From Dictyostelium discoideum (taxonomy: Eukaryota), in the NCBI GenBank assembly GCA_000004695.1, contig CM000154.2, positions 4,352,001-4,416,000 of the forward strand: DNA of 64,000 bases, in the 5' to 3' direction. Of this stretch, positions 23,423-25,665 are shown in pieces. The notes under the pieces are model-generated. The model saw nothing but the letters and a program-made list of their open reading frames with translations, was not told the origin of the DNA and ran no database searches. Within the stretch, counting starts at the first letter, position 1, and each line of letters opens with the position of its first letter. The translations under genes and the position numbers were made by a program.

Positions 23423-25665
23423 ATGATTGAAAATAAAATAGAACTGAATTGTGCACTCCATACAAATAAAAATTTAGAATTTTTATGTTTAGATTGTAAA
23501 TTAATACCATGTTGTACTTTATGTATTTCTAGAGGAGGTGAACATCATCGTCATGGAATTGATTCATTAGAATCAATACAAACATCTTCAATTCTTTCAA
23601 TGATGAATAATTTTAAAGATGTTTATCCCAAAGTAATTGAAAGAATAGAAAATGATCAACAAATATTAAAAGATTCTGATGAAATTTTCAATGAAATTCA
23701 ATCACAATATAATAAAAATAAAATCACAATAAACGAAGAATTTAAAAAAATTCATAACATACTTTCAATAATCCAATTGGATATTGAAAGACAATTAACA
23801 ACAGATTTCCAAGAAAATACATTAATAAACACAACTATAACCTCTTCAATAAATAATAATAATAATAATAATAATAATAATAATAATAATAATAATAATA
23901 ATAATAATAATAATAATAATAATAATAATAATAATAATAATAATAATAATAATAATAATAATAATAATAATAATAATAATAATAATAATAATAATAATAA
24001 TAATAATAATAATAATAATAATAATAATTCAATCACAGATATATTAAATATTTCTATAAAATATATACAACAACAATATAATAATGATGATCACTTTAAA
24101 ATAGATTCAAATTCAATTGAATTAATAAAACAATACCAACAATCATTACTATTATTAAATAATAATAATAATGATAATTTAAATAAATTAAAAGAATATA
24201 ATAATCAAACCATTAAATTCGATAATCAATTAATTAATGATATTAAAAATAATTTAAAAACAATTTATTCTTTTGAAAATAATAATAATAATAATAATAA
24301 TAATAATAATAATAATAATAATAATAATAATTATAATGATAATGATAATAATAATAATTATAATGATAATAATAATAATTATAATAGTAATAAAGCTGAA
24401 AAATTAAATATCGAAATTGATGAAAATAATTATAAATTTATAAAGAGTATGTTGTGTATAAATAAATAAATAAATAAATAAATAATAAATATTAACATTA
24501 TAGATATATTATTATAAAAATAGAGCGAAATAAAAACTATTATATTTATTCAGAGAATAATGAATTTCCAAAAAATAAAGAAGGTATTGCGTTTGGAGAA
24601 GATTGTGGTAGTTTATTAGAATTTAATTGGAATAAGAATTTAAAGAATGTTATGTTATTAGATGGATTTAAAGAAAGTTTAGAACCAGGTGTATTACCAA
24701 ATGGTATTGTACATTTAGAGATAGGTGATATTAAAACACCATTAGTAGTTGGATCAATACCATCAACAGTTATAAGTTTAACATTTAATGATGGATTTAA
24801 TCAATCATTAGAACCTGGTGTATTACTAAATAGTATTTTAAATTTGAGAATAGGTGATATTAAAACACCATTAGTAGTTGGATCAATACCATCAAGTGTT
24901 TTCAGTTTAGCATTACATGATGGATTTAATCAATCATTAGAACCTGGTATTATTCCTCAAAATAATAAATATAAGGATTTTTCATCTATGCAGGGTGTAA
25001 AATACCTAACATTACATAATATTAAAAGTGAACTAAACATTGGATCAATTCCAAAGTCAGTATACCAATTGACTCTAAGAGATGGGTTCTCTAAAACATT
25101 AAAGCCAGGTGTTATTCCAAGAAGTGTAGAAATTGTAACATTACAGGAAATAACAAAACCATTAATAATTGGATCAATACCTTATACAGTTTTAACAGTA
25201 CAATTTCTTACAGGCTTTAACCAATTACTTACTCCAGGTATTATACCAGAAGGTGTTAAAGTATTAGAATTCTACCAAGTTAAGGACTTATTAACTCCTG
25301 GTTCAATTCCTAAATCGATTTATTCATTAAGTTTCAAGGATGGTTTCGATCAAATATTATCACCAGGTATAATTACTGATGGAGTGTGTGAGTTATATTT
25401 GCGAGGAATTAAACAACCATTAGTATTGAATTCAATACCAAATTCTGTCACAAAATTGGATATCTATAATGAATTTAATCAAGAACTAACACCAGGAATC
25501 ATTCCAAATTCAATAAAGGAATTAACGTTAGGTAGTTTAAATACACAACTTGTTGAAGGATCAATACCAAAAACAATTCAAAAAATTATTTTATATGGTA
25601 ATATTGAACCATCATCTTTAGATGTTTGTAAATTAGATAAATCTGTATTGATATATAAAAAATAA
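23423..25665 (+). CDS. B-box/FNIP paralog (copy 7), apparently intact. Two exons: 23423..24446 and 24524..25665 (alternative acceptor gives 24554). It contains an in-frame (AAT)57 that encodes about 57 consecutive Asn.
   Basis: The donor a|GTATGT is at 24447. The acceptor AAAATAG is at 24521-24523. The frame is open across the splice: ..[45 protein letters not shown]. Confidence 0.65.
23852..24027 (+). repeat. Perfect (AAT)~58 microsatellite, in frame inside exon 1 of copy 7 (poly-Asn).
   Basis: Direct reading of the sequence. Confidence 0.9.

Follow-up and report, generated by a model that had tools for sequence, protein, structure and literature searches.

A 59-unit in-frame AAT repeat in a mosaic B-box/FNIP gene of Dictyostelium discoideum

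Copy 7 in a tandem array of B-box/FNIP genes of D. discoideum was found to carry a perfect run of 59 AAT codons, read in the asparagine frame, directly behind a conserved sequence motif. It is very probably a coding AAT microsatellite that grew by slippage in a tolerant linker, neutral or nearly so, within a recombinant gene copy. The window, meaning here the whole stretch of 64,000 nucleotides that was analysed (contig CM000154.2, positions 4,352,001 to 4,416,000), contains the array. Its GC content was 12-30% in 2-kb windows, and simple repeats occurred throughout.

The AAT tract and the gene model of copy 7

Pattern search and translation gave a pure run of 177 bases in copy 7, made up of 59 AAT units and specifying 59 uninterrupted Asn residues in the frame of the ORF that opens at the ATG at position 23423 (Table 1). 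The preliminary description had reported 57 Asn at 23852-24027; it was right about the site and the frame, while the count is corrected here to 59 and the end to 24028. The sequence scan detected no GT dinucleotide in 23760-24040, so that the tract cannot be spliced out, and the possibility of it being an intron was rejected on this ground. The spliced model, with two exons and 721 aa, agreed in span and length with an NCBI gene call in a second assembly (GCA_054883475.1), and this annotated 721-aa call included the (AAT)59. Neither the exon 1 ORF nor the exon 2 ORF of copy 7 was recorded as a called gene on its own. Judged from the sequence, the 59-Asn tract is probably translated.

Table 1. 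Features of copy 7 and of the copies compared with it (positions in the window)
Feature	Position	Strand	Basis or remark
Copy 7 microsatellite, perfect (AAT)59, Asn144-Asn202	23852..24028	+	regex and ORF translation
Copy 7 exon 1: B-box zinc finger, long predicted helix, N59 linker, more helices, second Asn-rich tract	23423..24446	+	ORF
Copy 7 second Asn tract, (AAT)18 then interrupted N/Y/D codons	24278..24393	+	
Copy 7 intron, GTATGT...ATAG, 77 bases	24447..24523	+	donor at 24447, exon 2 ORF frame restored
Copy 7 exon 2, FNIP repeats, copy-6-like from about 24750 on	24524..25665	+	Pfam, sliding identity, informative sites
Copy-8-like segment of copy 7, 93-99% identity, ~1.35 kb	23388..24750	+	blastn, sliding windows; 3' boundary about 24720-24800
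Copy 8 exon 1, comparison copy	26104..26968	+	NCBI gene call of 616 aa in GCA_054883475.1
Copy 8 linker, 14 interrupted codons, site homologous to N59	26533..26574	+	
Copy 8 second tract, (AAT)29	26824..26910	+	
Copy 8 exon 2, FNIP repeats	27059..28044	+	58% protein identity to copy 7 exon 2
Copy 6 interrupted Asn-rich tract, ~85 codons including (AAT)22, (AAT)14, (AAT)8	19285..19539	+	TRF, pure runs, codons
Copy 5 (AAT)20, same junction, pseudogene with in-frame stop	16919..16978	+	

The Pfam scan of copy 7 detected FNIP repeats (PF05725; 180.6 bits, E = 5e-54, 7 stretches) well above the cut-off of 21, as in the dictyostelid family that combines a B-box with FNIP repeats. The B-box zinc finger (PF00643), starting at residue 8, scored 23.3 bits, just below the cut-off of 24.1. 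Its Cys/His columns (C22, C25, C30, C31, C34, H41 and H44) were invariant across the 14 family members aligned, and homologues have precomputed PF00643 matches. No RING family was found in copy 7 by the scan at E <= 0.01.

The family alignment served as input for an AlphaFold2 model of exon 1 of copy 8, which gave the structural setting at low overall confidence (mean pLDDT of 54). The B-box region reached about 80-85 in means over 10-residue blocks, and a single helix of ~95 residues (54-149) had block means of 61-79. From residue 145 of the copy 8 model pLDDT was below 50, and N59 starts at residue 144. The tract is predicted to sit where the long helix ends on its C-terminal side and a low-confidence region of variable length begins.

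Two further genes were located. The AX4 protein DDB_G0290679 mapped at 100% to 6106-8983 of the window, which belongs to chromosome 5 of D. discoideum, and a single-exon neighbour gene was located at 28155-30317 on the minus strand. The homologue search with the neighbouring 720-aa gene returned a homologue only from Acytostelium.

Mosaic structure of copy 7

Copy 7 had been described as a 97%-identical sister of copy 8 that arose by a very recent duplication, and neither part of this description was supported as it stood. Identity of 97-99% was confined to about 23430-23700 in sliding windows, and blastn gave 94.1% over 506 bases (23388-23893). The flanks of the tract were 91-96% identical to copy 8 and could be aligned base for base right up to the repeat. 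They are thus similar, but not the essentially identical flanks reported before: ~8 of the 92 bases directly upstream differed when the alignment was inspected by eye, and the 260 bases downstream contained about 15 mismatches and two 3-base indels. Sites specific to copy 7 in this downstream part include an additional CAA codon at about 24069-24075 and the codons CAC TTT at 24091-24096. At the protein level, identity to copy 8 was 94.4% in the N-terminal 143 residues, 88.6% in the middle part and 58% in the FNIP half.

The rest of copy 7 exon 2 was instead close to copy 6, with 85-90% identity compared with 63-80% to copy 8, and a maximum chi-square of 179 over 476 informative sites placed the breakpoint at 24720-24724. 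The region upstream of copy 7 resembled neither neighbour in blastn. The change from copy-8-like to copy-6-like sequence points to partial gene conversion or unequal crossover, and a recent whole-gene duplication was rejected on account of the breakpoint and the 58% identity of the FNIP half. Copy 7 is a chimera formed by recombination within the array, and its likeness to copy 8 represents a gene-conversion or unequal-crossover tract of ~1.35 kb.

In the part shared by copies 7 and 8, dS was 0.105, and dN/dS over the 143 N-terminal codons was 0.25, which shows that both copies have been under purifying selection. At a base-substitution rate of 2.47e-11 per site per generation, as published (PMC7466956), the dS corresponds by our own arithmetic to a divergence on the order of 10^9 generations. 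This is ample on the timescale of a microsatellite, and the event shared by the two copies counts as "recent" only when set against the other copies.

The linker in homologues and in other copies of the array

In the family alignment, N59 falls directly after the nearly invariant motif NT(L/I)INTxITSSIN. All nine aligned homologues from outside the window, derived from D. dimigraforme, D. discoideum, D. cf. discoideum and D. firmibasis, had a short and non-repetitive linker at the column of the tract, and short non-repeat linkers were also found in copies 2, 4 and 8 of the window. The claim that the long pure tract is specific to copy 7 was therefore borne out, as copy 8 and all other homologues retrieved are short and non-repetitive there. 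The site in copy 8 reads TCA ATA, then AAT AAT GAT ATT GAC AAT TAT AAT AAA AAT AAA AAT AAT AAT, then TCA ATC ACA GAT, so that 14 codons stand between TSSI and SITD, both of which are shared with copy 7. A short interrupted linker had indeed been reported for copy 8, but with 12 aa, a number reached only when the outer Asn codons are dropped.

D. dimigraforme P0002 and P0003, the homologues most like copies 7 and 8, read AAT GAT GAT AAT CAT AAA AAT GGC CCA at this site. The P0003 locus has no flanking genes in common with the window and thus serves as an outgroup at the family level only. Given the short linkers in all homologues, the short interrupted state is ancestral, and (AAT)59 is the derived state in copy 7.

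Alleles of other strains were searched for with the full copy 7 protein and with a version free of the Asn runs; none was found, the best match other than a paralogue having at most 51% identity. P0038 of another D. discoideum assembly (GCA_054859385.1) was rejected as the same locus because of its different family cluster, its DNA identity of 80-89% and its unrelated flanking genes. A scan of metagenome contigs for exact matches to the 3' flank gave no match, and no exact entry for the copy 8 protein or the neighbouring 720-aa protein was found in the protein collection.

Expansions at the same junction were also present in copies 5 and 6 (Table 1). The interrupted tract of copy 6 had been noticed before and lies where it was reported, although its size and limits, given as ~90 aa at 19290-19500, are replaced here by ~85 codons at 19285-19539. 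The expansions of copies 5 and 6 may stem from one shared event. Since copy 7 is independent of these two copies, at least two expansions took place at one junction. To call the linker a "hotspot", as was done previously, is fair in the sense of recurrent expansion, with copies 5, 6 and 7 all expanded at the same junction.

Origin of the tract

The slippage origin that we favour can be described as a series of steps. The ancestral linker would have been short and interrupted, as in copy 8 and D. dimigraforme, and the two AAT units in the conserved TCA ATA AAT AAT, behind the conserved motif, would have served as the seed. The interrupting codons would then have been lost in the copy 7 lineage, probably by slippage deletion between flanking AAT units, and the pure tract would have grown to 59 units by slipped-strand mispairing. 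We infer the order of deletion and subsequent growth of a pure tract from the fact that no interrupting codon is left in copy 7; slippage as the mechanism is likewise the putative part of this scheme. To turn a linker like that of copy 8 into a pure tract, six interrupting codons have to be lost, a step without surviving trace. The resulting Asn run would be tolerated because the junction is flexible and variable in length and because the organism tolerates Asn/Gln homopolymers.

Several observations bear on this scheme. Outside the pure runs, copy 7 used 68 AAT and 6 AAC codons, and the probability of 59 AAT in succession from codon preference alone was about 0.007 by our own arithmetic. Homopolymers encoded by a single codon have been read as recent expansions (PMC3188802). 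Hairpin-driven expansion was rejected, as the AAT/ATT repeat had an MFE of 0 kcal/mol on both strands and all 200 shuffles folded at least as well; an expansion route of the CNG type is thus not predicted, and the simplest mechanism is plain slippage, the DNA being easily melted. Mutation accumulation has revealed a 4.5-fold deletion bias among small indels in D. discoideum (PMC7466956), so growth to 59 units needs explaining, either by rare large gains or by weak selection.

The tract itself is most likely neutral or nearly so. A selected tract length, with the Asn run acting as a functional spacer or a prion-like self-assembly module between the B-box/coiled-coil and FNIP parts, is improbable. 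Such a role would fit the purifying selection on the flanking sequence (dN/dS of 0.25), the expansion of the same junction in three copies and the preference for Asn/Gln frames among the coding repeats of this genome (PMC9234386). On the other hand, the three expanded copies include the pseudogene copy 5, and their junction lengths of 20, about 85 and 59 are unrelated to one another, compared with 5-14 in the other copies. A non-coding (AAT)55 is present in the same window, and published data show coding repeats to vary as much as matched non-coding ones, with positions that are mostly not conserved between species (PMC3460934, PMC3188802).

We also considered whether the long tract was ancestral to the pair of copies 7 and 8, the linker of copy 8 being a contracted remnant that decayed to 14 interrupted codons. 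AAT accounts for 8 of these 14 codons, and 5 of the remaining 6 are one substitution away from AAT; small deletions outnumber insertions by 4.5 to 1 in D. discoideum, where substitutions are also enriched in simple repeats (PMC7466956). The decay would, however, need, by our own count, at least 7 substitutions within 42 bases (17%), ~3 times the flank divergence of 5-6%. Moreover, short, interrupted linkers of a comparable N/D/K pattern occur in P0002 and P0003 of D. dimigraforme and in every other family member, and these short-linker outgroups make a contraction in copy 8 quite unlikely.

Acquisition of the pure tract in one step, through recombination or gene conversion involving a different AAT tract, such as the second tract of this gene family, rather than slippage in situ, is still harder to credit. 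It would account for the complete loss of the interrupting codons by a single replacement in a gene that is demonstrably recombinant, and copies 7 and 8 contain long AAT tracts 250-430 bases further downstream. Nevertheless, no flanking sequence of a donor tract was seen, as both flanks align with copy 8 up to the repeat, and the pure repeat carries no information on a donor.

The tract in a second assembly

The copy 7 site of GCA_054883475.1 (D. discoideum CM142511.1, 4.486-4.508 Mb) also contained exactly 59 AAT units, and the mosaic structure of copy 7 was identical in both assemblies. Over the 22-kb overlap, ~25 differences were found, nearly all of them in how long intergenic A or T runs are; GCA_054883475.1 always had the shorter run. 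These differences mark the window and GCA_054883475.1 as separate assemblies. Within the shared stretch, the remaining six pure AAT runs with at least 14 units (22, 14, 18, 29, 25 and 16) had equal lengths in both. Although short reads make it hard to assemble a pure repeat of 177 bases and many homopolymer lengths disagree between the two assemblies, a length produced by collapse or over-extension of a simple repeat is extremely unlikely, given the occurrence of exactly 59 units in two separate assemblies, the concordance of six further AAT runs despite the homopolymer differences, the reading frame intact through the tract and the annotated gene model that contains it. The artefact that the preliminary description named as a possible refutation thus found no support in the separately assembled chromosome, and the tract can be regarded as real. 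GCA_054883475.1 may come from the same laboratory lineage as the window, in which case the agreement counters assembly error and is silent on the stability of the tract.

Repeat background of the genome

Other pure AAT/ATT runs within the 64 kb had 55, 36, 31, 29 and 25 units. The longest of them, the (AAT)55 of 165 bp at 53169-53333, follows a stop codon and is non-coding. Counts for the whole genome of D. discoideum give 3064 perfect triplet repeats in exons with 20 or more units, AAT being the commonest motif, and over 2966 Asn/Gln tracts with a length of at least 20 (both from Scala et al. 2012, PMC3460934), together with 1,436 simple repeats above 100 bp (Sucgang et al. 2011, PMC3188802). 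Only 5% of the D. discoideum homopolymers have a counterpart at the same position in D. purpureum (PMC3188802). At a density of one per ~24 kb, ~3 repeats longer than 100 bp were expected in 64 kb, and 3 were observed (177, 165 and 108 bp). As the window meets the published density, (AAT)59 is no anomaly and falls within the upper tail of a distribution already known: a perfect repeat of 177 bases is beyond chance, yet it is no outlier against the background of this genome. The feature is of a kind already well known, the Asn-coding AAT repeat of D. discoideum exons.

Gene diversity among wild clones was 0.78 for coding repeats and 0.80 for matched non-coding repeats, and it increases with repeat number as y = 0.0093x + 0.54 (PMC3460934). 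Near-maximal diversity is expected from this regression at 59 units. A primer pair of the same survey, TCAAACCATTAATTCGATAACCA / CCACAACCTTCTCCAAATGC, mapped to copy 8 at 26751-26774 (with a one-base indel) and 27124-27143 (exactly). The pair was taken from Table S3 of PMC3460934, where it is printed beside the loci 414A'/415A', (AAT)28; the machine-read form of the table is misaligned at this place. As the primers bracket the (AAT)29 of copy 8, a repeat of the copy 7/8 pair was apparently among the survey loci.

Relation to known systems

The closest likeness is to the coding AAT microsatellites of D. discoideum, with which the copy 7 tract shares the organism, the motif, the Asn frame and the purity of a single codon, as well as a position unshared with homologues, a gene with more than one repeat and a length within the published distribution. 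With at least 20 perfect units, an exonic Asn frame, its occurrence in D. discoideum and its lineage specificity, the tract belongs to this class. Coding AAT triplet and poly-Asn repeats of this organism were reportedly treated by Eichinger et al. in 2005. The 59 units exceed the loci of 27-40 units in the population survey (PMC3460934), while nothing differs in kind. In the literature searched, no earlier description was found of a comparison of mosaic paralogues within one tandem array for this gene.

The Asn-rich insertions of Plasmodium falciparum resemble the copy 7 tract in the AT-rich genome, the AAT-driven Asn runs between conserved blocks and the slippage origin. P. falciparum belongs to a different lineage from Dictyostelium, and the likeness is drawn from a literature listing, in which microsatellite change in this parasite is represented by PMC6644851.

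Human polyGln CAG and polyAla GCN loci are comparable in that the length of an in-frame triplet repeat alters the protein and replication slippage has been proposed. CNG repeats form hairpins, whereas the AAT/ATT strands of copy 7 do not (MFE of 0). In Dictyostelium, repeats are not known to cause a threshold pathology. The organism resists polyGln aggregation (PMC9234386), and the literature cited in PMC9234386 and PMC13093961 has D. discoideum keeping Asn/Gln-rich proteins largely soluble. With yeast-type Asn-rich prion-like domains, copy 7 shares only the composition, a long Asn run beside a helical oligomerisation sequence. The B-box-type zinc-binding motif at the N-terminus, with one long predicted helix behind it, recalls the B-box and coiled coil of TRIM-like proteins; unlike TRIM, copy 7 had no detectable RING, and its B-box score was just under the Pfam cut-off.

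Implications

The (AAT)59 of copy 7 matters little alone, being one more case of a well-documented class of exon repeats. Its practical value is that of a marker, as a tract of 59 units is expected to be very polymorphic. It is very doubtful that the Asn-tract length acts as an evolvable "tuning knob", by which slippage and conversion would diversify the spacing or self-assembly of B-box/FNIP paralogues. If this were true, social or recognition phenotypes could be influenced by the tract length of a fast-evolving family, which shares its arm of chromosome 5 with the social cheater gene chtB (DDB_G0290617). The finding that array copies are recombination mosaics is a useful correction for annotators, and because the copies are mosaics, comparisons with a "sister copy" need to be made segment by segment.

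Gene models in the B-box and FNIP-repeat array, and the chtB gene

The mapping of the AX4 gene model DDB_G0290679 showed that it covered the complete B-box and FNIP gene of copy 1 together with the B-box/helix exon of copy 2. The positions of its three blocks, listed in the table, therefore indicated that the model links copy 1 to this exon, and copy 2 was found without an FNIP exon of its own. The probable explanation is either fusion of two genes in the model or truncation of a copy.

Two further members of the array, copies 4 and 5, look like pseudogenes. A change of frame was detected within the B-box of copy 4, where tblastn matches fell in two frames, while copy 5 contained an in-frame stop and a deletion downstream of KINEYFKFFII. 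Despite this pseudogene-like sequence, a product of 458 aa appears in the new annotation by NCBI at the end of the locus, which is the site of copy 5.

The social 'cheater' gene chtB (DDB_G0290617) also harbors FNIP repeats, and consists of two exons and one short intron (PMC3559258). It is located outside the window at AX4 chr5:4377789, on the same arm of the chromosome. Judging from gene-ID spacing, the distance past the window is probably some tens of kb.

Features located in the window
Feature	Position	Strand	Description
DDB_G0290679 (AX4, 815 aa)	6106-6906, 7002-8078, 8459-8983		three blocks, 100% match
Copy 4	13695-15557		pseudogene-like array member
Copy 5	16520-18357		pseudogene-like array member
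Second Asn tract, copy 7	24278-24393		(AAT)18 and interrupted N/Y/D codons
Second Asn tract, copy 8	26824-26910		pure (AAT)29
720-aa Ser/Thr-rich protein gene	28155-30317	minus	single exon

Neighboring gene and other repeats

Besides a unique helical segment of approximately 150 aa, the 720-aa protein possessed polyGln runs and an (AAT)25 run of its own. A single homologue was found outside Dictyostelium, a protein of Acytostelium with 51% identity across half of the query, and the exact sequence of the 720-aa protein was present in only one indexed assembly.

A 607-aa ORF, Asn-rich and zinc-finger-like, had its stop codon at 52998, and directly downstream of it was a non-coding (AAT)55 at 53169-53333, nearly equal in length to the (AAT)59 tract of copy 7. 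Three repeats of a 414-base unit with 89% identity (TRF score 2013) were also detected at 1106-2371, and GCT, TCT and ACA triplets were abundant in the printed unit.

Comparison with the second assembly

The differences between 18109-40348 and the same locus in GCA_054883475.1 were almost entirely in long A/T homopolymers, which were always shorter in the latter, as at 18626 (58 A vs 33 A). This looks like under-calling by one technology rather than strain divergence.

Second Asn tract in copies 7 and 8

Copies 7 and 8 were also unlike each other in the second Asn tract, which the homologues from D. dimigraforme lacked. This pair of copies thus has two tracts, each varying independently. Scala et al. 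2012 (PMC3460934) list in Table S3 a primer pair that flanks the (AAT)29 of copy 8 (26751-27143), and the corresponding copy 7 tract (24205-24608) could also be amplified with this pair, with two differences per primer.
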